34,700 nucleotides of DNA. Origin: a virus. Lineage: Duplodnaviria; Caudoviricetes. Location of the stretch: positions 1 through 34,700 of the IMG/VR virus record IMGVR_UViG_3300002307_000135; one strand, given 5' to 3'. Position numbers and translations under genes: made by a program. The notes beneath the pieces are model-generated. The model was not told the origin of the DNA. It saw nothing but the letters and a program-made list of their open reading frames with translations, and made no database searches. Below are positions 3,305-28,236 of this stretch, one piece after another (positions within the stretch are counted from its first letter, which is position 1; each line of letters starts with the position of its first letter).

Positions 3305-5389
3305 CTACCTACGTCCATCCGGGCGGATATCTATCCTCGGGGCACCCAACTGCCAAGCCGTACCAAGGTTGCTGCTACCGATCTTAAAGATCAACTGCCG
3401 CCCGCGAACCCGTGTATATACAATCCCCGTGAATTCTTCGGTAATGTTGTAGTCCGTACCTTGGGTAACGCCCATCACGCCCGGGGTGCTTGCGCCCGAT
3501 CCTGAGTTCTGCATGGGGTACAGCGTCATCGTGGTCTGGCCGGTGTACCCGCTGGTGGTTCCGCTGAAAGTCAAATCCGGCAGCACACGCCAGATGAACG
3601 AGTAGTGGTCGCCGTCCCCGATGTCAAACTCCGAAGAGGACACATACGCCACAATGGGGGCTGGGGTGCCGGTTTCGACGTCATCATTACCTTGCTCGTG
3701 TTGGACGGTGTAGCCGTTGTAAGTCGTGGCTAGCGGGCTAGGCTGAAGACCGGAATCAATCCAAGCCGTGCGCGCCATCGTGCCGTAATACCAAGTGTTC
3801 TCAAGGTAGTTGTACACCACGTACTTGTCAATTGTCGTGCTGTTGGCTGAGCAGTAGAACCACCAGACCTCGTTAAACGCCTCGACTGTGCTGGCAAAGA
3901 CCTGCTGGTTTTGGTACATATTTATATCATTAAAGATATATTTACGCAGGTCGCAGTTCTGCGTTTGTACCCGGCCATCGTAACGGTAGAACTTGTCGAT
4001 GCCCATCCAGAAAATAACGCCCGAGGCCAGCGCCACAGCGTTTGGCCCCATGATGGAGATGTTGTCGCCCAAGATCTGAGTCTGCCAAACGTAGGGCGTT
4101 CCAATGTATTGCAGGCTGTACACGGCCTGATCGGTAATCACAAATACCTCTTGTCGGGTCTGGATGACGCTGACAATCTGCGAACCATGGGACAGTCGGA
4201 TGCTGCCTGCCTGATTTGTAGCGTCTGGCGTCCAAGCGTAGGGGTTTTCCTGATCCGACCAGCGAATCAGCATTGGGTCAATTGTGCTGCTGCCGTAGTT
4301 GTTGGTGCCAAAGACAATCACAAACCGCGATGCATCCGAGACCAAAATGTTGTTCTGAACAACCGGCACGTCCACCAAGTTAGATATGTACTGGGTGCCG
4401 GACTGGGAGCCTGAAGTGTTGACCGTGTTGCCGTTAACGTCGATCAACTGGGATGTCAGGCCATCAAGGTTGTTGATGTAGTACGTTGTGCCCGCCGTGA
4501 TTCCCGTGGGCAGCGCCCCTGTGGTACCAAATTGGATGGCGGTGCCGTCCGTCAAAGCGGTGGTGTATGTAACGACGGCTGGGGTTGCAATTGTGATGGT
4601 TACGTTTCCGCCCAAACTAGACAAGAGCACCCCCGGATTTGCCGTGGTATTGCTCACCTGCCAGTAGTAAAGACCGCCACCTTTTGGGCCATAGAGCAAG
4701 TTTTCGCCAAAGTTATACGCATCCCACAAGCGTAAGTCATTTTTAACGGTCGATCCATTACCCCAAGTGCCGAACCCCCAAGGGCCCGCGCCCCACCCAT
4801 AGAACGGAACTTGAATGGCCGGGCCAGTATTAATTTGGTAGGTTGCGACTACTGCGCTGCCCCCACCAGTCGTAGAACTTGTTGCTGTACCGGTAGCTTG
4901 GATGGTGTACGTGTTGGCGTTTGGCGCGGTAAGAATTTGGTAAGACCCGCTGACTGTAACGCTGGCAACCGCAGTGGCCCCAGAAAAACTTACGAAGTCG
5001 TTGACAATAGCGCCATGTGCTGTGTGCGTCACTGTAATTGTTGTTTTTCCACCGGAGTTGGTGGTGGTATTGGTGGCGAACGGGTTTGCACCTAGCGTAG
5101 CAGTTAGCCGCACCGGGGTGATATCAAAGTATGTGTTGCCGTACGTAATGTAAAACTTGAGGTTTGTCCCCAAGGAAACGTAGTTGATGTTGGCCGTTGT
5201 GATCCAATTCCACAAGTTGCGGCAAACGCCAAGGAAAGTAGACGTAGAGTACTGAATCCACCCGCCGATTTTTTCGGGAGTACCTTGGCGAAACCGGATC
5301 TTGTCGCTTTCGTACCAGCCACTTTCATTCAAGTAGCGGGTATTTTCACGGTTAACGCCGGGTTTAAAAATCAGCTTTTGTAGAGGCAT
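3305..5389 (-). CDS. Tail nozzle / DNA-stabilisation protein (P22 gp10 / T7 gp12-like position), 694 aa, with Thr-rich inserted domains
   Basis: Long ORF with beta-propeller-like W/Y-rich segments (IRWSDQE, FNEVWWFY) and typical termini (KPGVNRE..., LGAPRIDIRPDGRR). Located between the lysis and ejection genes. Confidence 0.65.
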   Translation of the reverse strand: MPLQKLIFKPGVNRENTRYLNESGWYESDKIRFRQGTPEKIGGWIQYSTSTFLGVCRNLWNWITTANINYVSLGTNLKFYITYGNTYFDITPVRLTATLGANPFATNTTTNSGGKTTITVTHTAHGAIVNDFVSFSGATAVASVTVSGSYQILTAPNANTYTIQATGTATSSTTGGGSAVVATYQINTGPAIQVPFYGWGAGPWGFGTWGNGSTVKNDLRLWDAYNFGENLLYGPKGGGLYYWQVSNTTANPGVLLSSLGGNVTITIATPAVVTYTTALTDGTAIQFGTTGALPTGITAGTTYYINNLDGLTSQLIDVNGNTVNTSGSQSGTQYISNLVDVPVVQNNILVSDASRFVIVFGTNNYGSSTIDPMLIRWSDQENPYAWTPDATNQAGSIRLSHGSQIVSVIQTRQEVFVITDQAVYSLQYIGTPYVWQTQILGDNISIMGPNAVALASGVIFWMGIDKFYRYDGRVQTQNCDLRKYIFNDINMYQNQQVFASTVEAFNEVWWFYCSANSTTIDKYVVYNYLENTWYYGTMARTAWIDSGLQPSPLATTYNGYTVQHEQGNDDVETGTPAPIVAYVSSSEFDIGDGDHYSFIWRVLPDLTFSGTTSGYTGQTTMTLYPMQNSGSGASTPGVMGVTQGTDYNITEEFTGIVYTRVRGRQLIFKIGSSNLGTAWQLGAPRIDIRPDGRR

Positions 5390-5397
5390 CGCACATC

Positions 5398-5874
5398 CTA
5401 AGACAGGAAAAGGGCACGCTCGTCAATGCGGCGGTTCTGCAACCCTTTGAGGATTTTACCCCCAGCCATGCAATACTTCAAGAACTCATCCGCAGCGCCC
5501 GCTTTATCCCCGCGAAGCAGTTTCTGGCGAAGCGTAGAACGCTGGAGTCCACCAAGACCCAAGTTAAAAGCGAAGCTGACAAGCCCATCAAACATACCTT
5601 GTGTAAGAGGGATAGGACAGAACTGCTCGACCCCGCGCTCAAATCTAGCCAAATCTGCTGCAAGTATTGCATCAACTTCCTCCATAGGGAAAACCCTATC
5701 ATCCTCTGGACGTAGGGCAAAGCCATCACGCTCTTCCAGTTTTAGCTTACCCTGCTCAGGGTAAAGCACATGGCCCACGCCAACAGTCCAAAGGCGAGCG
5801 GGGCATCGGTACGGGCGTTGACGCACGCCTTCATGGTGCTTAATTACCCGCAGCGCTTTGTCTGAGACTTTCAT
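5398..5874 (-). CDS. Endolysin, GH24 phage lysozyme
   Basis: HEG-x5-YRCPARLWTVGVGH catalytic region (E...C/D...T triad), FDGLVSFAFNLG, GLQNRRIDERALF. Confidence 0.92.
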   Translation of the reverse strand: MKVSDKALRVIKHHEGVRQRPYRCPARLWTVGVGHVLYPEQGKLKLEERDGFALRPEDDRVFPMEEVDAILAADLARFERGVEQFCPIPLTQGMFDGLVSFAFNLGLGGLQRSTLRQKLLRGDKAGAADEFLKYCMAGGKILKGLQNRRIDERALFLS

Positions 5875-6386
5875 TTACCGAAGGCCCTGCCACCGAAGTG
5901 AAACGCCACAATACTGGCAAACAGCGCTTGGGTGTTGGAATCCCAAAGACGGTCAGCTAAAACAGGAAATTCAACGCCGTGGTTGTAGCCATAAATGAAC
6001 AAACCAACATCCACAAAACACAATAAGAAGAAGAATCCAAGGGTAATGAAGCTGCGGACACCTGCGCGTAGGTTTTTCATCCACTGGCTGGTTCCCTCGT
6101 TGAGCGACTCATCATGCTCGTAGATGGCCTGCATCTCGGCTACTTGGGCGTTGACCAAATTCTCGTTGGCCTTGGCGTTAGTCTGAAGCTCCAAGTCGGC
6201 ACTGTGGATCTGCTCAATCCTCTCCTGCGCTTCAAAGCCTGCTTTGCGTAACTCCAGTTCACGCTCAATCTGCATTCGGGCCAAGTCCAGCTCATGGCGC
6301 TTGTCAGCGCGGTCTTGGAAAAAGTCCAGCAGCTTGGGCAGACCCCCCATGAGGAATGAGATCAGCGTAGACAGGATCGTAAGCAT
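5871..6386 (-). CDS. Putative holin (three hydrophobic segments; 3-TM holin-like)
   Basis: N-terminal hydrophobic helix, coiled coil, W..NLRAGVRSFIT followed by a TM segment, and a C-terminal IVAFHFGGR. Overlaps the endolysin start (ATGA); its own start forms a TGATG overlap at 6386. Confidence 0.7.
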   Translation of the reverse strand: MLTILSTLISFLMGGLPKLLDFFQDRADKRHELDLARMQIERELELRKAGFEAQERIEQIHSADLELQTNAKANENLVNAQVAEMQAIYEHDESLNEGTSQWMKNLRAGVRSFITLGFFFLLCFVDVGLFIYGYNHGVEFPVLADRLWDSNTQALFASIVAFHFGGRAFGK

Positions 6387-6859
6387 CAGTGTTTCTCCAA
6401 CAACATAGTGAGCCACCAGAGGATAAGCCCAAGTACCAAAATAACTATGGCCCCACCAAGGAGCCAGTTGATTAACTCATCCAACTCTTTTTTCTTAGCC
6501 GCTGCGTTTTTCTCATCCAAGATTTCCTGCGCTTTGCGCTTTTGGATTAAGTCGTTTCTGGTGATGAGTAGCTGCTGCCAAACATCCGCATGACCGTTAA
6601 GCACCAGCCATTGGTTCAGTTCCTTCTCTGCGTCATCCAACTTCTTGGCTTGCATGACGATCTCAAACGCCTGCGCCGTGTCCGACCCCGCAAACCCTGT
6701 CTTTGGCTTGGACGCTGCCCGCTGGACAACATCCTTGGCCTCAAAGAACTTCATGGCCTCGCCAGTGATGGCGTGGATATCTTTACCTAGCTTTATTGCA
6801 GCTTGGACACCCTTAACCGCCGCTTGGGCCGTAGCAAAAGCGGTAATCGGGTCAATCAT
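6386..6859 (-). CDS. Hypothetical membrane-anchored coiled-coil protein (157 aa)
   Basis: MIDPITAFATAQAAV start, coiled coil and one C-terminal TM helix. Translationally coupled to both neighbours. Confidence 0.75.
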   Translation of the reverse strand: MIDPITAFATAQAAVKGVQAAIKLGKDIHAITGEAMKFFEAKDVVQRAASKPKTGFAGSDTAQAFEIVMQAKKLDDAEKELNQWLVLNGHADVWQQLLITRNDLIQKRKAQEILDEKNAAAKKKELDELINWLLGGAIVILVLGLILWWLTMLLEKH

Positions 6860-7702
6860 TTAAACGCCCATTTTTTTCCTGATCTCTGTGGCAGAAATAG
6901 CATGAGTGGCTGCATCAAACACTTCTTGTTCAATCTTGTAGCCCACATCTCGTCCATAGGTGATGTTCACCACGTTAGGCACAAGCTGGATCTCATACTG
7001 GCCCTGATACAGAGGGTCTAAATCACGCTTAATCAGGTCTTTAACCTGCTCGGCGGCAAAGGGGTTGGAGCCGTTCCAGCCTTGGCAGTCACGGATCTGA
7101 ATGACCACTTGGCCTGTCTTGGCGATAGCACGGTCAAACAATGCACGGTGGCCCGGATGCCACGGCTGCCAGCGTCCAAGCATCTGGACGGTTTCCTTCT
7201 TCCAGTCAAAGGTAGGACGGCGGCGCTCATCAAGGATGTGGTTGCCAATGAACTCAGCCCACTTCTCACAGTCCTGCTCGGTGACACGGAAATCATATTC
7301 CTTCGGAGGAATAAATGCCTTGTTGGTGTCCTCGTAGCGGCCCTTCTCAATGGTGTCCACCCAGATCGTCCAGTCGGCCTTGAAGTTGTTGCGCATCTCA
7401 ACAAGCGGAGCAACAAAGTCGCAGATCACATAGTCGGTATTGGCCTTGAGCGCAAACTCAGCCATACGCAGTGACTGACGAATGCGGCCCTCGTTGGAAA
7501 AATCCCAATCATTGAAGCTCTTGCGGACATCATCGGCGTTGAACCACTTCACGCTACATTTGTAGCTGGTGGGTATATGCTCTCCTGCGCGATACAGGGG
7601 CATATGCTTGACTGTTGAGTTTTCCTCAAGGTAGCGCTTCAAAGCGCCAGCCAAGTACGTTTTGCCAGAGCCGGGAAGCCCCATGATTAGGATTTTCTTC
7701 AT
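6860..7702 (-). CDS. Adenylylsulfate-kinase (CysC)-like P-loop domain fused to a C-terminal HxGH nucleotidyltransferase domain; candidate minimal PAPS synthase
   Basis: GLPGSGKT Walker A; NADDVR...DWDFSNEGRIRQ and ICDFVAP match the APS kinase DGDNVR...DLGFS..DR..N and ISP motifs. The second domain has GRWQPWHPGH (HxGH), YGRDVGY and ISATEIR. Confidence 0.8.
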   Translation of the reverse strand: MKKILIMGLPGSGKTYLAGALKRYLEENSTVKHMPLYRAGEHIPTSYKCSVKWFNADDVRKSFNDWDFSNEGRIRQSLRMAEFALKANTDYVICDFVAPLVEMRNNFKADWTIWVDTIEKGRYEDTNKAFIPPKEYDFRVTEQDCEKWAEFIGNHILDERRRPTFDWKKETVQMLGRWQPWHPGHRALFDRAIAKTGQVVIQIRDCQGWNGSNPFAAEQVKDLIKRDLDPLYQGQYEIQLVPNVVNITYGRDVGYKIEQEVFDAATHAISATEIRKKMGV

Positions 7703-8091
7703 AGGAGCGCGTCCAGTTCGTCGTGGCTGGTGGCTGCATCAATAGCGGCTTGCTTGGCAACCATAGTCTGACGGGCGGCTTCAATTGCGCTTGCGTCAAA
7801 TGTCATGGGGTTGCTGGCTTGCTGGTTGACCACCTGCTGGAACGTGAACTGTGCGTTGGCCTTCATACCGTTCTTGCGGTCATCTACGGCGATGTCGTAG
7901 CTGTCCCAGATGATCTGCACAGGGTCTGTGTTGAGATCATAGCGGTGTGCTGTGTAGCCTTGGCGGTGCGGCGTGATGTTTGCACGAACCTCCACTGCAT
8001 TGCGCCAGCCGTTGTTGCCGACTCCTTCTGCGGGCGGTGTATCCCACACATCTTTAACCTCACCATTTACTACCCGAACGTAATGTGTCAT
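7699..8091 (-). CDS. Hypothetical protein, possibly a tail-fibre assembly chaperone (130 aa)
   Basis: AGGAG RBS; follows a fibre gene; C-terminal AIDAATSHDELDALL is typical of fibre-assembly proteins. Confidence 0.6.
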   Translation of the reverse strand: MTHYVRVVNGEVKDVWDTPPAEGVGNNGWRNAVEVRANITPHRQGYTAHRYDLNTDPVQIIWDSYDIAVDDRKNGMKANAQFTFQQVVNQQASNPMTFDASAIEAARQTMVAKQAAIDAATSHDELDALL

Positions 8092-8113
8092 ATAGACTCC
8101 TTGTTAAAAAAAA

Positions 8114-9568
8114 TTAAGCTGGGCGAATTGCAAATCCATAATTGCCACCAGCCCCACCAGAAACCCAACTTGTTAGTGCGCCAACTTGTTTAGGAGAGGA
8201 ATATGTAGTTTCATTTCCAAGTCCCAATTGTCCACCATAACCAAATCCCCAAGACCACAGTGTCCCGTCAGTTTTTAAAGCAAGTGTTTGATATAAACCT
8301 GTCCAAACTTGTGACCAAGTTGTAAGCCCGCCAACTTGTTTAGGAGATGAATAACTATTTGTGTTTCCAAGCCCTAATTGACCCTGACTTCCAGATCCCC
8401 AAGTCCACAAAGTTCCATCGGTTTTAACGGCGGCAACATGATAGCCGCCACCAGCAACACTTAACCAATTAGTCAAAGTACCTACTTGCTTTGGAGAAGA
8501 ATAAAAATTTAAATTTCCTAAGCCTGTTTGACCAGCCCCAGCATCTCCCCAAGACCACAATGTACCGTCAGTTTTAATTGCGTGTGTAGATCCACCACCA
8601 TTATTCCAACTTCCTACGGATAATTTAGACCAATTAGTAAGAGCGCCAACCTGTACAGGAGATGAGTAATTAATTGACTGAGCAGAATATCCACCTTGGC
8701 CCCACGACCAAAGAGTCCCATCAGTTTTAATTGAAATCATACAACCATTAGCCACAACTAGTTTTGCCCAGTTTGTTGATGCTCCAACTTGAGTTGGCGA
8801 TGTATATGCCCTAAAGGAACCGCTGCCAGAAGTACCTAATCCCAATTGACCGTCATTGTTGTAACCCCAAGTCCACAGCGTACCGTCGGTTTTAACGGCT
8901 CCGCTAGACTGCCCGTTATCAACGCAAAATGACCAAGTAGATGCTGAACCAACTTGAACAGGAGATGAGTAGTTTTTAAGTACCCCATTGCCCATGTTGT
9001 ACCAAGTATCACCTGTACCCCATCTCCAAAGTGTTCCGTTGTTTTTTACAAAGGAAGGTGTTAAGAAATTTGCTCGTGCATTAATTGCACTAGAAGTTGA
9101 ACCCCAGTCCCCGCCAGAGCCAAGTTGTGTAGGCGAAGAATAAGACGTTATATTACCAAGGCCAAGTTTTCCAGTTGCTCCATCACCCCAAATAAACACA
9201 GTGGGCTGTAATGCTGGCGTTACACTATTACTTGCTGCACTTGCTGGGCCTGTGCCAGTTGCGTTAGTAGCTGTTACTGTGAATGTATACGCCGTTCCGT
9301 TGGTCAAGCCAGAGACTGTAATAGGTGATGCAGATCCCGTGCCAGTAAAGCCGCCGGGGCTGGATGTGACTGTGTAGCTTGTAATGGTGGCAGGTATGCC
9401 GAGATCTGTTGGCGCAGTAAAAGTTACAGACGCACTTAAGCTACCAGCAGTAGCAGTGCCAATTGTGGGTGCACCCGGTGGGCGAGGCCAAGTCCCCGCA
9501 GCTTTAGCATTGGCTTGGCTGCTGAGGTTCCAGATGCCTGAGTATTGAACGCTTGATGCTGTTGCCAT
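8114..9568 (-). CDS. Fibronectin type III + RCC1-repeat beta-propeller protein (putative fibre/adhesin, type B2)
   Basis: PGAPTIGTATAG...VSGLTNGTAYTFTVTATNATGTGPASAASNSVTP is FN3. About 7 repeats of KTDGTLWxWGxxxxGQLGLG...YSSPxQVG are RCC1/BLIP-II blades. Confidence 0.88.
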   Translation of the reverse strand: MATASSVQYSGIWNLSSQANAKAAGTWPRPPGAPTIGTATAGSLSASVTFTAPTDLGIPATITSYTVTSSPGGFTGTGSASPITVSGLTNGTAYTFTVTATNATGTGPASAASNSVTPALQPTVFIWGDGATGKLGLGNITSYSSPTQLGSGGDWGSTSSAINARANFLTPSFVKNNGTLWRWGTGDTWYNMGNGVLKNYSSPVQVGSASTWSFCVDNGQSSGAVKTDGTLWTWGYNNDGQLGLGTSGSGSFRAYTSPTQVGASTNWAKLVVANGCMISIKTDGTLWSWGQGGYSAQSINYSSPVQVGALTNWSKLSVGSWNNGGGSTHAIKTDGTLWSWGDAGAGQTGLGNLNFYSSPKQVGTLTNWLSVAGGGYHVAAVKTDGTLWTWGSGSQGQLGLGNTNSYSSPKQVGGLTTWSQVWTGLYQTLALKTDGTLWSWGFGYGGQLGLGNETTYSSPKQVGALTSWVSGGAGGNYGFAIRPA

Positions 9569-9571
9569 GAT

Positions 9572-10705
9572 TTATCCTAGCGCAATAAAGGAACTGTATG
9601 TGGCAGCTACAGCAAGCCAAGGAGAGCTAGAGCCTAACTGCGTTGGTGATGATCTATCTCCAGCGCCTGAACCTAAACCAAGTTGTCCAGCATTATTTCT
9701 GCCCCATGTCCAAAAAGTTCCATCTGTTTTAATAACAGCAGTGCTGTTATTGGTAATAACACCCAAAGACCAATTTGTTAACGATCCGACTTGTTTTGGT
9801 GAAGAGTAATTGGTTGTATTACCAAGTCCAAGTTGACCGTAATTGTTTTTACCCCACATCCACAGTGTGCCGTCGGTTTTTACTGCTCCAGTATTTCCGC
9901 AATCTCCCCCATTATTTCCTAAAACTTTTGACCAGTTAGTTAAAGCTCCAACTTGTTTTGGAGAGGAGTAATAAGTCGTATTGTTAAGACCGAGCATTCC
10001 AGTATTATTTAATCCCCAAGACCATAAAGTTCCATCGGTCTTTACCGCCAACATTGAAAAATATGCTCCCGTTACTGCAAGCCAAGTAGTTAAAGCGCCA
10101 ACTTGTTTTGGTGAAGAGTAATAAGTTGTATTACCTAACCCTAATTGACCGTAGTTATTTCTTCCCCAAGTCCATAATGTGCCATCTGTTTTAATGGCTG
10201 CTGCACCTTGTTGGGGGGTAACGTAAACTTTTTTCCAAGTGGTAAGCGACCCTACTTGTTTAGGAGAAGAATAGTCAGTTACATTACTTAAACCTAAAGT
10301 ACCAAACCCGTTATATCCCCAAGACCATAAAGTTCCATCTGTTTTTACAGCAAGAGTGCTTTCTCCACCAGAACTAATATTTGACCAATTGGTAAGTGCG
10401 CCAACTTGTTTTGGAGATGAATAATTGGTAGTGTTACCAAGACCAAGTTCGCCTGATGAGTTAAACCCCCAAGCCCAAAGAGTACCATCGGTTTTTATTG
10501 CAAATCCTATACCAGTTCCACCGCCTAATGAAGCCCAAGTAATTAATGATCCAACTTGTTTGGGGGATGAATATGTTGTTGTGTTGCCAAGTCCAAGTTG
10601 ACCAGAGTTATTAGAACCCCAAGCAAATAGGTTGTAAGTGTAAGTAGGCGCAGCCAGCGGGTTGTACCCCGGCTTGTTGATCCCAGCGGCATATCTGAAG
10701 CTCAC
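9572..10705 (-). CDS. RCC1-repeat beta-propeller protein (type A2)
   Basis: Seven ~50-aa KTDGTLWxWGxNxxGxLGLxNTTxYSSPKQVG repeats after a short N-terminal leader (KPGYNPL). Confidence 0.9.
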   Translation of the reverse strand: MSFRYAAGINKPGYNPLAAPTYTYNLFAWGSNNSGQLGLGNTTTYSSPKQVGSLITWASLGGGTGIGFAIKTDGTLWAWGFNSSGELGLGNTTNYSSPKQVGALTNWSNISSGGESTLAVKTDGTLWSWGYNGFGTLGLSNVTDYSSPKQVGSLTTWKKVYVTPQQGAAAIKTDGTLWTWGRNNYGQLGLGNTTYYSSPKQVGALTTWLAVTGAYFSMLAVKTDGTLWSWGLNNTGMLGLNNTTYYSSPKQVGALTNWSKVLGNNGGDCGNTGAVKTDGTLWMWGKNNYGQLGLGNTTNYSSPKQVGSLTNWSLGVITNNSTAVIKTDGTFWTWGRNNAGQLGLGSGAGDRSSPTQLGSSSPWLAVAATYSSFIALG

Positions 10706-12471
10706 GCTACGCTCCTAAGTAATGGCTTCTCACCCAACCGTGCTTTGATTTGGTCAAAGGGTGCAGACCAGTCACCAAACACCTCTTGCCTGAACAGGCG
10801 CATGGAATCATAGTAGGGGGTCTTGTCGCCGTCAAGGGCATAAAGGAAGTACGGCATGATCGGCGTGATTACCCATGTCTCAATGCCCATCGCAGCCGCA
10901 ATATGGCTCACGCTGGTGCAAGACGATATCACTAGATCACAGCTTGCCGCTGCTGCCCGTGTGTCTTCCCATGTGTTCAGAGGAACTTGTTTGACCCAAG
11001 GCGGTGTGGCCTCTGCGCCCTCGTCGCGCTGCAAGCTGATGAACTCGTAGTCGCTGTCCTTAACTGCGTCAAACATCAACTCGTAGGGGAACTTCTTGTG
11101 ATGCTCATGCTCAAACTTGCTGTTGCCCTGCCAGCGCAGACCGATACGCTTCTTGCGTCCCTTGATGGTCACAGGCTTGGAGATGTACGGCGCACCAGAC
11201 AGATCAGCAAGCTCCAGCCCCAGTGGGACTACGGCAGACATACCAGCCACCCATGAGTCGTGGTAGATGCCAAACACTGCCTCGTGCTGGATGACAGAAG
11301 AAACACCTTCAACGCCGACAAACAGGCTTGCCAGCGGGCCAGAGCAGGACACGATTACCTTGCAGCCGCGATCAGCGATCATCTTGGCATAGCGCACCTG
11401 ATGGATCTGGTCACCCAAGCCGCCTTCCAAGTACAGCAGGATTGTTCCCTTGGTCTTGCCATCCCACTGCGGTGTGGGTACATCTGGGTGCTTGTTGCCG
11501 AACACACCAGCAATACGGCCTCTGTCCATCAACTGGTAGCCCTTTTGGATCTGACTTTGGCGCAGGTAGTACCAGCCACGGTTGTAAGCAGCGCGATGGT
11601 TGTTTGGCTCCTCTGCCTCCAGTTTCTGGGCAATGCGCCAGCCTTCAGCAAAGTCACCAGTGGTGGATGCCGCCAGCATGAGGTCAAGATCGTGCAACTC
11701 AGGTACTGTGCGTGGGCGCTCAAGCCAGAACTCAGGCTGGCAGAACGTGCCGTAGTGGGACTTCAGTAGCTCACGGGGGTCTTGTTTGTGTTGGGCGGCG
11801 AGTACAGGTTTGACATCGTGCATACCCGCATGACCGTGCAACTGCTCATCGTCCTCTGCTACCGTGGAGCCGTCGATGTTGTTGAAGTCGTACTCAAACG
11901 CTGGTAGCTCCAAGAACTCGTGGATACGGGCCAATTGTCCTTTGGGGTCTGCCAGCAGGTCTTCGTACTCCACAAACAGGAAGTTCTCTGGTGCGTACTC
12001 AAAGCCGTTTTGCAGGGAGATGTAAGCAGCCCGTAGGTGATCCATTAGCTGACCAGTGTGCATGAACTCATCCAAGTCGGCTGGCTTGGCTACACGGATA
12101 AACGATGCAGCGCAGTCAGGCACGGAGCGGACGGTGGCAATGATCTTGGGAGGACGATCCAGCACTTGGGCCATAGCGCCCATGATCTGTGCAATGGGCC
12201 AGCCACGGGACTTGTCGATGATGACGGGCTTGTCGGTGTCCTCGTAGAACGCATCAATGGCCCCGCGCATGGTCTGGGCCAGCTTCTTACGCTCTGGGTC
12301 ATTCTCATTTAAGAGGCCAGCAGAGTGCCAAGTGTTTGCCAAGCCATCCAGCGCATGAACCAGACCAGATGTGGTGGACACATGGGTCATTGGGTTCTGG
12401 TTCAAAATAGCCGCAAGGACTGTCGAGCCAGAGCGAGGGATGCCAGAGAGGAAGTGCAGTGTTTTGTTCAT
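10702..12471 (-). CDS. Sulfotransferase - TPR-like - GT-B (family 9-like) glycosyltransferase fusion, 589 aa
   Basis: Start MNKTLHF at 12471. SGIPRSGST (5'-PSB loop), IDKSRGW, VRSVPDCAAS (3'-PB) and VEYEDLLADP mark the sulfotransferase. A helical repeat (HRAAYNRGWYYL) follows. EGGLGDQI, IGLRWQGN, FISLQ, DLVISSCTSVSHIAAAMG and PYYDSMRLFRQ...GDW mark the GT9-like domain. Confidence 0.85.
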   Translation of the reverse strand: MNKTLHFLSGIPRSGSTVLAAILNQNPMTHVSTTSGLVHALDGLANTWHSAGLLNENDPERKKLAQTMRGAIDAFYEDTDKPVIIDKSRGWPIAQIMGAMAQVLDRPPKIIATVRSVPDCAASFIRVAKPADLDEFMHTGQLMDHLRAAYISLQNGFEYAPENFLFVEYEDLLADPKGQLARIHEFLELPAFEYDFNNIDGSTVAEDDEQLHGHAGMHDVKPVLAAQHKQDPRELLKSHYGTFCQPEFWLERPRTVPELHDLDLMLAASTTGDFAEGWRIAQKLEAEEPNNHRAAYNRGWYYLRQSQIQKGYQLMDRGRIAGVFGNKHPDVPTPQWDGKTKGTILLYLEGGLGDQIHQVRYAKMIADRGCKVIVSCSGPLASLFVGVEGVSSVIQHEAVFGIYHDSWVAGMSAVVPLGLELADLSGAPYISKPVTIKGRKKRIGLRWQGNSKFEHEHHKKFPYELMFDAVKDSDYEFISLQRDEGAEATPPWVKQVPLNTWEDTRAAAASCDLVISSCTSVSHIAAAMGIETWVITPIMPYFLYALDGDKTPYYDSMRLFRQEVFGDWSAPFDQIKARLGEKPLLRSVA

Positions 12472-12482
12472 GTGCTTTGAAA

Positions 12483-13643
12483 TTAAGTGGTTGCAATTGC
12501 TAAAGCGGTGTACCCACCGCCAGCAACGGTAAGCCAAGTAGTTAAAGAACCAACTTGTTTTGGTGATGAGTAGGCAGTAGCATTATTAAGGCCTAATATT
12601 CCATAAGTACTTGGCCCCCACGCCCAAAGAGTATTATTAGTTTTAATAGCCAAAGAAGCCCCTGAAGAAATTATTATAGAATTCCAAGTAGTAAGTGCGC
12701 CTACTTGTTTAGGGCTGGAATAATAAGTGGTGTTTCCTAAGCCAAGTTGACCACTAGCATTTTGCCCCCAACTCCAAAGAGTTTTATCTGTTTTAACAGC
12801 TAACGAGTAAATAGCAAATTTATTATTTATATTTGACCAATTAGTAAGAATTCCTACTTGTTTAGGGGATGAATAGTACGTGAGATTGCCAAGACCTAAC
12901 TGACCATTAAGGTTATTACCCCATGCCCAAAGTGTGCCATCTGTTTTAATAGCTAGAGTAAAATTTCTACCGCAAGAAATATTAGACCAAGTAGTTAAAG
13001 CACCTACTTGTTTAGGTGAAGAGTAGTAAGTAGCGTTGTTTAAACCTAATCTACCATCTGTACCTCTCCCCCAAGACCAAAGACTTCCATCAGTTTTAAT
13101 AGCTCCAACATGATAATTTCCACCCGAAATTAGTAACCAAGTGGTAAGTGCGCCCACTTGTTTTGGAGATGAATAATTAGTTGTGTTTCCTAAGCCTAAC
13201 TGTCCAAAATCATTTTTACCCCAAGCCCAAAGCGTACCGTCATTTTTTATCGCTAAAGATGAAATATAACAATTTGTAATTGATAACCAATTTGATAGAC
13301 TTCCTATTTGTTTAGGAGAAGAGTAATTAGTAGTGTTTCCTAAACCTAATTGTCCAAAATCATTTTTACCCCAAGCCCAAAGCGTATTATCTCCTTTAAT
13401 AGAAAGGGCACTATTTCCACTATTAGATAATTTTAACCAAGTAGCCAGTAATCCAACTTGCTTTGGAGAAGAGTAATTGGTGGTGTTGCTTAAGCCGAGT
13501 TGACCGCTAAAATTTTTTCCCCACGAATAAAGGTAACCAGCGCCCGCAACAGGCCAAGTCCCCGCCGCAATGGCAGCATTTACCTGCTGCATTGTCCAGA
13601 TGCCTGAGTATTGAACCCCTGTGACTGTTGTAGTGACTGGCAT
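12483..13643 (-). CDS. RCC1-repeat beta-propeller protein (type B1)
   Basis: Start MPVTTTV at 13643, just after the upstream stop. Leader QYSGIW...AAGTWP, then seven RCC1 repeats. Confidence 0.9.
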   Translation of the reverse strand: MPVTTTVTGVQYSGIWTMQQVNAAIAAGTWPVAGAGYLYSWGKNFSGQLGLSNTTNYSSPKQVGLLATWLKLSNSGNSALSIKGDNTLWAWGKNDFGQLGLGNTTNYSSPKQIGSLSNWLSITNCYISSLAIKNDGTLWAWGKNDFGQLGLGNTTNYSSPKQVGALTTWLLISGGNYHVGAIKTDGSLWSWGRGTDGRLGLNNATYYSSPKQVGALTTWSNISCGRNFTLAIKTDGTLWAWGNNLNGQLGLGNLTYYSSPKQVGILTNWSNINNKFAIYSLAVKTDKTLWSWGQNASGQLGLGNTTYYSSPKQVGALTTWNSIIISSGASLAIKTNNTLWAWGPSTYGILGLNNATAYSSPKQVGSLTTWLTVAGGGYTALAIATT

Positions 13644-13644
13644 A

Positions 13645-14790
13645 TTAATAAAGTAATGCAGTGCTAAAGTATTGACCAGCAGCAACATTTATCCAAGTTG
13701 TTAAAGATCCGACTTGATTGGGTGAAGATTTATATGTTCCAGATCCTGATGTACCAAGGCCAAGTTGTCCACTGGCGTTATAACCCCAAGACCAAAGTGT
13801 ACCGTTTGTTTGTGTTGCTAATGCCATACTCCCGCCTCCGCTCACTGAAGACCAGTTGGTTAAAGCGCCAAGTTGTTTGGGGGAGCTATAACTTGTTTGG
13901 TTGCCCATACCTAAAGCGCCTTGGCTTCCTTCTCCCCAAGCCCATAAAGTTCCATCTGCTTTGATGGAATACATCGCGCTGTTTCCGCCTTTTACAGAAA
14001 CCCAATTAGTCAAAGCCCCAACTTGCTTTGGGGACGAATAGTACGTTGTATTCCCTAAACCCAAATTACCCGCGCTATTTCTACCCCAAGTCCATAAAGT
14101 TCCATCAGTTTTAACTGCAAATGTAGACGCATAAGTACCGCCAACAATAGACCAGTTGGTCAGTGCGCCAACTTGTTTAGGCGAAGAATAGTACGTTGTA
14201 TTACCTAAGCCAAGTTGGCCTACATAACCAGAACCCCACGCCCATAATGTGCCATCTGTTTTAATAGCAAATGTTGCATAAGCAGTGCAACCTGTATTTT
14301 TCCAAGTAGTTAAAGCACCGATTTGCGCAGGAGAGGAGCGATATGTTGTATCGCCTAACCCCAAACATCCTTGGGCGTTGTTTCCTACTCCCCAAATAGT
14401 ACCATCTGTTTTTGTAAAAATAAAATGATAACGACCTGAACTAACAGTATTCCAGTTAGTTAAAGATCCAACTTGTTTAGGTGATGAATAGCTTGATGTA
14501 TTTCCTAAACCAAGCTGCCCATAACCGTTATATCCCCAAGTCCATAATGTGCCATCAGTTTTAATTGCTGCTACGCTGTTGTAAGCTGCCTTAACTTTAC
14601 TCCAAGTGTATAAAGACCCAACTTGAACAGGGGAAGAATAATTGGTTGTACTGCTTAAACCAAGCGCTCCGCCAGAGCCAGATCCCCAGCTATACAAATA
14701 CGGGAAATAAGTAGTCGTGGTCGTTTGTGTCCCCAGAGGATTGAACCCCGGCTTCACAATACTACCTTGGAACATTTGTCGTAAAGACAT
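13645..14790 (-). CDS. RCC1-repeat beta-propeller protein (type A1)
   Basis: Leader KPGFNPL, then seven RCC1 repeats. Confidence 0.9.
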   Translation of the reverse strand: MSLRQMFQGSIVKPGFNPLGTQTTTTTYFPYLYSWGSGSGGALGLSSTTNYSSPVQVGSLYTWSKVKAAYNSVAAIKTDGTLWTWGYNGYGQLGLGNTSSYSSPKQVGSLTNWNTVSSGRYHFIFTKTDGTIWGVGNNAQGCLGLGDTTYRSSPAQIGALTTWKNTGCTAYATFAIKTDGTLWAWGSGYVGQLGLGNTTYYSSPKQVGALTNWSIVGGTYASTFAVKTDGTLWTWGRNSAGNLGLGNTTYYSSPKQVGALTNWVSVKGGNSAMYSIKADGTLWAWGEGSQGALGMGNQTSYSSPKQLGALTNWSSVSGGGSMALATQTNGTLWSWGYNASGQLGLGTSGSGTYKSSPNQVGSLTTWINVAAGQYFSTALLY

Positions 14791-27614: not shown

Positions 27615-28049
27615 TTATGCGCGGGTAATTCCGCGTGGGTCGTCCACCACCGCATCGACTTGATCGTCATTGATGAGGCGGAACTCTTTGCCGTAAATCT
27701 TGAGGCGCGTACCAGAATATGTACGTGTCACCACAAAGTCTCCGGGTTTGCACCAAGGGCCGCTAGGGAACTTGGCGGGATCTTTATACGCATCGGGGCC
27801 TACCTTCAAGACAAACAGCACGGTGGTCGCGTGTTCTTCCTGACGGATGTAGGTATCGGGGCGCTCAAGATCAAGCTCGGTACCGGACAGCTTTGTCGAT
27901 ACTTCGGGCAGAACACACAGCAACTTGTAGCCTGTCGGCTCAGGAAGCATGGTGCCTTTTTCTTCAGCAGTAGCGTCGTCTTGCGGTTTATCCTGTGGCT
28001 GGATACCGGGCGGAAGACTCATACCGGGTGGCAAAATGATATTACTCAT
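27615..28049 (-). CDS. groES: GroES/Cpn10-like co-chaperonin
   Basis: PTGYKLL..., VLKVGPDAY, CKPGDFV, YSGTRLKIYGKEFRLINDDQVDAVV align with GroES PLxDRV / VLAVGxG / VKVGDxV / YxGTEVKxDGEEYLIxxExDILAVV. Confidence 0.8.
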   Translation of the reverse strand: MSNIILPPGMSLPPGIQPQDKPQDDATAEEKGTMLPEPTGYKLLCVLPEVSTKLSGTELDLERPDTYIRQEEHATTVLFVLKVGPDAYKDPAKFPSGPWCKPGDFVVTRTYSGTRLKIYGKEFRLINDDQVDAVVDDPRGITRA

Positions 28050-28236
28050 CTGATTTTTCGACTTTCTCTGCAAGGTCAATGACATAACGCTCTGCAACGG
28101 CTAGACCCTGAATAACGCCGCAGAGTTTTTGATACTCATCAAAAGTTCGACACACCCCTCCCGCCAAGTCGTCAGCGTAGTTGTTCATGTCCTTACGTAT
28201 TTGGTCGCGCAATACGTTTGCGAATTGTTGGATCAT
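28042..28236 (-). CDS. Small conserved protein downstream of portal (64 aa)
   Basis: DDLAGG...FDEYQKLCGVIQGL; overlaps the portal stop. Confidence 0.8.
   Translation of the reverse strand: MIQQFANVLRDQIRKDMNNYADDLAGGVCRTFDEYQKLCGVIQGLAVAERYVIDLAEKVEKSDE

Follow-up and report, generated by a model that had tools for sequence, protein, structure and literature searches.

The 280-aa protein encoded on the minus strand of this phage fragment is likely a miniature PAPS synthase that carries a third kind of ATP sulfurylase and probably supplies PAPS for sulfating the phage's tail proteins or the sugars on them. Computation establishes its two folds, their motifs, purifying selection and the neighbouring genes; from gene context we infer both enzyme activities. 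We read the small C-terminal domain as a sulfurylase because of the genes around it in phages, in SAR11, in haloarchaea and at a nodulation locus. We further consider it probable that this domain represents a third ATP sulfurylase family derived from NadM, that it evolved independently, that it is the 'missing sat' with which SAR11 completes AprMBA sulfite oxidation, and that the fusion is the smallest PAPS synthase, used by thousands of phages to sulfate tail-fibre proteins or glycans and also by haloarchaea.

The window (the whole stretch of DNA analysed, 34,700 nucleotides) is a tailed-phage fragment with terminase, portal, capsid, tail and endolysin genes all on the minus strand. Its capsid protein shares 62–72% identity with those of Pag-Yong1, DSL-LC04, HTVC023P and HTVC027P. 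Two further genes were seen in passing: a collagen-repeat gene at 725–1615 on the plus strand, whereas the structural operon is on the minus strand, and, at 27615–28097 on the minus strand between the portal and capsid region, a GroES-like gene. The features discussed below are as follows.

6860..7702, minus strand: fusion gene, 280 aa, candidate miniature PAPS synthase (ORF from ATG to TAA; AlphaFold2 mean pLDDT 93.5)
7223..7702, minus strand: APS-kinase-fold domain, residues 1–160 (PF01583, VIA, profile search)
7658..7681, minus strand: P-loop GLPGSGKT, residues 8–15 (motif)
6863..7210, minus strand: small HxGH nucleotidyltransferase domain, residues 165–280; candidate ATP sulfurylase whose family derives from NadM
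7148..7177, minus strand: GRWQPWHPGH, NadM-type form of the HxGH motif (HPGH, residues 182–185)
7091..7093, minus strand: Arg204, putative sulfate-binding residue
6938..6958, minus strand: YGRDVGY, residues 249–255, counterpart of the Sat GRD loop
6878..6898, minus strand: ISATEIR, residues 269–275, common to Sat and NMNAT
10702..12468, minus strand: 588-aa fusion of a sulfotransferase (PF13469 63.7 bits, cut-off 27) and a TPR/GT9-like glycosyltransferase region
8114..14790, minus strand: span of four RCC1-repeat beta-propeller genes (8114–9568, 9572–10705, 12483–13688 and 13645–14790)
7699..8091, minus strand: 130-aa gene that belongs to no known family; its stop codon overlaps the fusion-gene start in ATGA

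Two domains of the fusion protein

The fusion gene is intact, its stop abuts the start of the next gene, and the size of its family, its coverage by PHROG 10255 and a dN far below dS show that it is not a chance ORF. Of the 7998 candidates scored at the 90% cluster level, 7699 matched at E ≤ 0.001, as did 1959 clusters at 50% identity. PHROG 10255 spans residues 53–279. Against ten close relatives, dN was far below dS in both domains, indicating purifying selection (C-terminal domain dN 0.004–0.032 against dS 0.22–1.6, with dS saturated in two of the ten). Among cultured phages, 12 of 15 matching records cover the fusion nearly whole at 35–39% identity (Sano, Salvo, DLP6 and kin). The PHROG 10255 'kinase' and the phage 'cysC' genes are the same or overlapping proteins, named kinase, adenylylsulfate kinase or hypothetical.

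The first-pass annotation had described a 280-aa fusion with a CysC-like kinase at its N terminus, and this description holds. The kinase domain passes Pfam PF01583 (APS_kinase) with 29.2 bits against a cut-off of 21.1, also exceeds the KTI12 cut-off (26.4 against 22) and stays below the equivalog cut-off of NCBIfam TIGR00455 (20.8 against 138.7). APS kinases were the top PDB matches of a 50-sequence profile and made up all matches listed by Foldseek for the AlphaFold2 model. They were also the best five matches in VIA (Z 16.9–14.7; next family 13.8), with 4rfv at Z 16.9, rmsd 1.9 and 128 residues aligned; NR kinases ranked far lower in both the profile and the VIA rankings. In alignment with APS kinases, conservation is high at K14 (100%), R60 (100%), F68 (98%), R73 (95%), F96 (90%) and P99 (94%), and we take the conserved P-loop and R/F/R/FxxP residues to be those of the APS site. 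The phage kinase resembles CysC (PF01583, TIGR00455; 4rfv, 2yvu, 1m7g) in its P-loop, its DxxR, FSxExR and FV/IxP motifs and its fold, and differs in missing the TIGR00455 cut-off and in a lid between R104 and F130 that is 23 residues shorter than in canonical haloarchaeal CysC. The full lid segment RDxKGLYxxAxxGxIxxFTG is not present and the register of the remnant is ambiguous; with its lid trimmed, kinase activity is not guaranteed. Separately, the subgroup of the window's protein has an insertion of ~22 residues at positions ~29–50 (window 7553–7618) that is without counterpart in most family members and holds most of the sequence variation.

The C-terminal domain of ~115 aa does contain the HPGH, YGRDVGY and ISATEIR motifs reported at first pass. 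Their reading as a Sat signature could not be upheld: they are not diagnostic of Sat, because archaeal NMNAT also has GRFQPFHKGH and SGTEIR. Folded alone, the domain adopts an HxGH nucleotidyltransferase fold with a pLDDT of 94.6. Foldseek with the small domain alone returned no match at E ≤ 0.001, and the fold ranking was taken from VIA in its place. M. jannaschii NMNAT (1f9a) scored Z 10.3 (rmsd 2.2, 104 residues aligned), PPAT 10.1 and NadM 10.0 and 9.4; the ATP sulfurylase of T. thermophilus (1v47) reached 8.5, TagD 7.6, HldC 6.8 and other Sat enzymes 6.1–5.3. The superposition that had been proposed to separate ATP sulfurylase from NMNAT and TagD thereby places NMNAT above both, although the Sat catalytic domain belongs to the same superfamily. 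In sequence, matches of the small-domain family profile at E < 0.01 were NMNAT-type chains only (best E 6.5e-10).

Sat ancestry was rejected. Sat enzymes are described by the motifs QXRN, HXXH and VGRDHAG in the accessible part of PMC6607087, and the Gln and Arg of QXRN hold the sulfate according to the available text of PMC3779200. QXRN occurred in none of 97 aligned small domains; in its place, 80 of the 97, fragments included, have GRxQ[PG]xH. PF01747 gave no match for the window protein and weak matches for 8 of 24 members (best 20.7 against a cut-off of 24.3). An hhalign comparison with two Pelagibacteraceae Sat sequences, as a template of only two rows, yielded a probability of 3% over at most 15 columns. 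Neither CysD (TIGR02039) nor CysN (TIGR02034) was among the 24 NCBIfam families with E ≤ 1. What the small domain has in common with Sat (PF01747; A. vinosum 4dnx, T. thermophilus 1v47, yeast 1j70) is HXXH (H182 95% and H185 99% conserved), a GRD-like loop and the C-terminal S(G/A)TxxR helix, in which R275 of ISATEIR is invariant. In the YGRDVGY loop, G250, R251 and G254 are invariant and D252 is 70% conserved, with the HAG of Sat absent (GRDVGY for GRDHAG). The small domain also lacks the N-terminal domain of Sat and is ~115–125 aa long against 340–400 aa.

With NadM and archaeal NMNAT (1f9a, 1ej2, 2qjt, 2qjo; TIGR01527), its nearest relatives in sequence and fold, the small domain shares GRxQPxHxGH, an NP(F) loop and S(G/A)TxIR. 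This closeness favours a role in NAD salvage, in which the small domain would be an NMN/NaMN adenylyltransferase and the kinase would act on a nicotinamide nucleoside as in NadR. We regard that role as very improbable. The NMNAT models were far from being reached (TIGR01527 26 against 181.2; NF002243 27.2 against 127), the kinase is of the APS-kinase type, and the acceptor side of the small domain has changed. After strand 2 it has Arg-Asp for the Gly-Ser of NadM, and position 204 is Arg or Lys in 92 of 92 aligned representatives and Gly in NadM. The spacing from the HxGH glycine to GY is 78 residues against 103 in 1f9a, a middle part shorter by ~25 residues; the domain has a YGRxVGY loop and ends ~30 residues earlier. 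In NMNAT the stretch between that glycine and GY presumably carries the nicotinamide-stacking Trp, and we take the Gly-Ser and the middle segment of NadM to be part of the nicotinamide pocket. Without the QXRN of Sat and differing from NadM too, the small domain is a member of neither family. An acceptor site smaller and more basic than that of NadM would suit sulfate, and Arg204 may bind it, a putative role read from sequence.

Activation of a sugar or alcohol phosphate for a GT9-like neighbour, by a kinase and then an NDP-transferase as HldE or TagD would do it, is about equally improbable. It would agree with matches to PF01467 (CTP_transf_like) at E ≤ 0.1 in 23 of 24 members and with the name 'cytidyltransferase' that databases give to small-domain proteins (the ESM Atlas gave such clusters only). 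TagD and HldC, however, rank below NMNAT and T. thermophilus ATP sulfurylase in fold. The kinase of HldE has a ribokinase-type fold, and that of the fusion is not of this type.

The first-pass annotation had likened the protein to metazoan PAPS synthases, with the same order of domains in more than twice the length. The length comparison is borne out (human PAPSS1 chain, 630 aa). The order is indeed kinase then small domain, yet it is not fixed in the family: 3 of 150 representatives are reversed fusions, and in SAR11 the genes are split. The likeness in order is thus coincidental, and the fusion is not a descendant of metazoan PAPSS. PAPSS1/2 (1x6v) is alike in having an APS-kinase fold first and an HxGH-superfamily domain second, and likely in catalysing the same two reactions; the phage protein differs in its shortened lid and its NadM-like second domain (Z 5.9 to 1x6v against 10.3 to 1f9a). 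Among other arrangements, the short kinase has different partners in P0171, P0244, P0181, P0196, P0211 and P0248, namely an SGNH/GDSL-like domain, sulfotransferase-like regions without Pfam match or a DUF2061-like tail. The partners in P0181, P0196 and P0211 look sulfotransferase-like by eye, have no Pfam match and were not counted.

Sulfotransferase cassettes in phages

The sulfotransferase gene at 10702–12468 lies 3 kb upstream of the fusion gene, among the four RCC1 propeller genes, and its product is the likely consumer of PAPS. Its C-terminal part has no Pfam or NCBIfam match over cut-off; PF01075, present in 13–60% of the members of the feature's look-alikes, was the lead to the GT9-like region. 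A PDB search with this gene gave weak StaL matches alone (E 0.1). The RCC1 propellers are likely tail or receptor-binding proteins and may be the acceptors of sulfation.

Among 48 IMG/VR carrier contigs, taken for their length from a set of 80, 41 had a PF13469 match over cut-off. The figure was 0 of 36 for contigs matched by capsid, and these likewise have no fusion. The 36 were all the contigs of 10 kb or more in a set of 80 picked by capsid alone, 7 of them at least 90% complete; the positive control for this test gave 5 of 5. Four of the seven misses (L001, L003, L013, L015) end close upstream of the fusion gene or inside the sulfotransferase gene, one has a sub-threshold match and two have no Pfam match at all. 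Within the fetched flank, the window's sulfotransferase was matched in 59 of the 80 carrier loci, RCC1 genes in 49, the GT9-like region in 50 and the 130-aa gene, by tblastn, in 41. These co-occurrence counts are not independent, as carrier contigs are kin and some near duplicates, and the RCC1 and 130-aa genes co-travel. Because RCC1 genes travel along, the linkage indicates a cassette and not, by itself, coupling. In carriers L037, L039, L052, L058 and L066 the sulfotransferase and GT9-like parts stand in reversed order.

The GT9-like region, in the neighbouring gene and in so many of the loci, speaks for sugar activation; against it, a stand-alone sulfotransferase lies directly upstream with no GT match in L005–L007, L012, L016, L017, L064 and L079. 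No sulfotransferase over cut-off was found in the cultured phages Sano and DLP6 or in the complete contig G031. Sano has a sub-threshold match only (PF17784, 20.7 against 22.8) two genes upstream, and none appeared among the seven neighbour genes scanned in DLP6. The gene between the Sano match and the fusion encodes a NADAR protein, a direct neighbour that would fit NAD salvage. In Sano (L081:5963–7002) these sulfotransferase-like and NADAR genes precede the fusion among small non-structural genes and outside the tail region, and the acceptor there may differ. Divergent sulfotransferase candidates beside L044, L063, L019:7375 and L083 had no Pfam match and were not counted. Two other loci are recorded here as observations. 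In L044:8911–13302 (G031, a 383-kb phage) the fusion is followed by TctA and TctC-like transporter genes, and two genes have P-loop-like N termini and no Pfam match. In phiRSL1 (L084:4995–10444) a kinase-only gene sits in a glycosyltransferase run ending with an annotated galactose-3-O-sulfotransferase.

Context in SAR11, haloarchaea and Microvirga

Scanning GTDB with the small domain gave 80 loci, and the titles of 78 name Pelagibacteraceae, Pelagibacterales or Pelagibacter, the SAR11 bacteria that abound in the ocean. In 64 of the 80 the small domain has a gene of its own directly after a short kinase gene, and the stand-alone SAR11 gene encodes 124–130 aa. Across 121 Pelagibacteraceae genomes (G172 and G122 enter only these tallies), we counted the small gene in 93, aprA in 91, the short kinase in 77, Sat in 5, CysD in 5 and nadD in 115. 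The small gene and aprA occurred together in 86 genomes and were both missing from 23, with 12 discordant (7 small gene only, 5 aprA only); Fisher values overstate this association because the genomes are kin and incomplete. All 77 genomes with the short kinase also have the small gene, and of the 16 carriers without the kinase, 14 have aprA. The small gene accompanies Sat in all five Sat genomes and is found in none of the five CysD genomes. Five aprA genomes show no small gene, Sat or CysD, the genomes being incomplete.

In nine of the carriers without the short kinase, the small gene precedes aprA by ~1.4 kb, both on one strand. All six loci read have the order small gene, a 263–266-aa membrane gene, aprB, aprA and then a TauE exporter, with a gap of 49–75 bases between the small gene and the membrane gene and no adjacent kinase. 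We named the membrane gene aprM from its position and a weak QmoC match. PF01583 did not exceed its cut-off in any of five tested genomes with the small gene before aprMBA. Elsewhere the order is kinase, small gene, CADD and aprMBA (L220), or the small gene is convergent with aprMBA (L227, L240). In the accessible text of PMC3779200, sat of Allochromatium vinosum stands immediately upstream of aprMBA, the position that the SAR11 orthologue of the small domain occupies. P. ubique is reported to be without sat and cysDN in the part of PMC5069961 available, which also describes one common pattern of cysC and aprA over seven genomes; aprAB is strongly conserved in SAR11 according to the accessible part of PMC12636525. 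At L263:3922–6131 (G100), CADD, the small gene and TauE follow one another and aprMBA is missing from between them, as though the apr genes had dropped out of the operon. The few Pelagibacteraceae Sat genes (L255, L256; 344 aa) begin with HTRN where QTRN would be usual; they are located away from aprA, in the company of surface-glycan-type genes.

These genomes also bear on NAD salvage. A nadD match is missing from six genomes, every one of them a carrier of the small gene (6 of 93 carriers against 0 of 28 others), as that role would have it; against it, nadD is present in the remaining 87 carriers, and its presence in 115 of 121 genomes leaves no NAD gap for the small gene to fill. Sulfur-gene neighbours in four lineages further set the small domain apart from NadM. 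NMNAT, part of the main alternative named at first pass, describes the ancestry of the small domain and probably not its function.

Of 11 plasmid matches, 10 are haloarchaeal, and 9 of these are annotated cysC. The haloarchaeal fusions have 283–284 aa with the kinase first, and both of the two scored pass TIGR00455. All four plasmids read (L270–L273, ~4900–8100 on each) have a sulfotransferase, the cysC fusion and a YqcI/YcgG gene, the last with weak similarity to a family of heme N-hydroxylases (60 against 145 bits); a search of these four plasmids found no Sat. In these cultured archaea the cassette has the look of a cluster for small-molecule sulfation that has not been described before. 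In P0226 the small domain comes first and is followed by a CysC that passes TIGR00455, and in L264 small-domain and canonical CysC genes stand side by side. Sugar activation leaves both this fusion to a canonical CysC and the slot before aprM unexplained.

A nodulation locus on a plasmid of Microvirga lotononidis (L274:1908–8350) carries nodJ, a sulfotransferase, a short-kinase fusion, cysD and cysN. The cysN product has no kinase domain and ends in DUF2061 instead of APS kinase. The fusion keeps the conserved kinase residues, and in its small domain R251, R275, the HxGH glycine and P214, 92–100% conserved elsewhere, are changed. This single locus fits a working short kinase with a sulfurylase that may have been made redundant by CysDN. 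G611, which has an intact fusion plus CysD, runs contrary to that pattern. The distribution is patchy: among 401 Pseudomonadota genomes sampled evenly, 400 gave no match to the small domain at E ≤ 1e-15.

Proposed pathway and its meaning

We propose that the small domain would convert ATP and sulfate to APS and PPi, and that the kinase domain would convert APS and ATP to PAPS, the kinase and host pyrophosphatase together pulling the unfavourable sulfurylase step forward. PPi removal was rate-limiting for a classic sulfurylase/kinase pair in the available portion of PMC10322725. PAPS would then pass to the sulfotransferase encoded upstream, giving sulfated phage tail proteins or sulfated sugars on them; the simplest guess for the acceptor is a glycan that the fused GT9-like region would attach to the RCC1 proteins. 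In SAR11 the small protein could run in the reverse direction behind AprMBA, from APS and PPi to ATP and sulfate, and in haloarchaea the fusion may serve small-molecule sulfation. Of the stripped-down bifunctional enzyme first envisaged, the PAPS-making function is retained on gene context; descent from Sat or PAPSS is not, given the lack of QXRN, the PF01747 result and NadM as nearest relative.

It is unlikely, though less so than the two alternatives above, that the small domain handles APS without being a working forward sulfurylase, that is, binds, channels or breaks it down while the kinase uses host APS. Every context indicates APS and none a direction, and the slot before aprMBA needs APS consumption. 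The missing QXRN casts doubt on the forward reaction. In addition, 54 of the 150 representatives match the kinase profile only (many of them fragments), and the cultured phages RsoM2USA and phiRSL1 have the kinase without the small domain. Against APS handling alone, the nucleotidyl-transfer residues (both histidines, R177, R251 and R275) are 95–100% conserved, the decay in Microvirga beside cysDN fits redundancy with a forward enzyme, and known ATP sulfurylases catalyse a reversible reaction, as stated in the accessible part of PMC3779200. For an enzyme that destroys APS, fusion to a kinase and linkage to a sulfotransferase would make little sense.

A third ATP sulfurylase remains our preferred reading of the small domain, which likely forms a new enzyme family with a known reaction as its predicted activity. 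Two unrelated ATP sulfurylase families, Sat and CysDN, are in common annotation use, and pathway calls hinge on detecting one or the other. A literature search that covered few subscription journals and no supplements found no account of the small domain as an ATP sulfurylase. Viral cysC has been reported in virome papers (PMC13172472, PMC13584214); in the parts of these that were searchable, cysC appears alone as a sulfur-metabolism gene, with no occurrence of a fused sulfurylase or a sulfotransferase. In SAR11, aprAB without sat or cysDN leaves the fate of APS open, as far as the accessible text of PMC12636525 and PMC5069961 goes. If the proposal is true, this gap would be closed by a gene of 124 residues that currently goes by the name 'cytidyltransferase' and could easily be tested, and a 280-aa protein would offer biotechnology a single-gene source of PAPS. 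Many phage 'cysC' genes would then be self-contained PAPS supplies for sulfation and not helpers of host metabolism, which would point to sulfated virion proteins.
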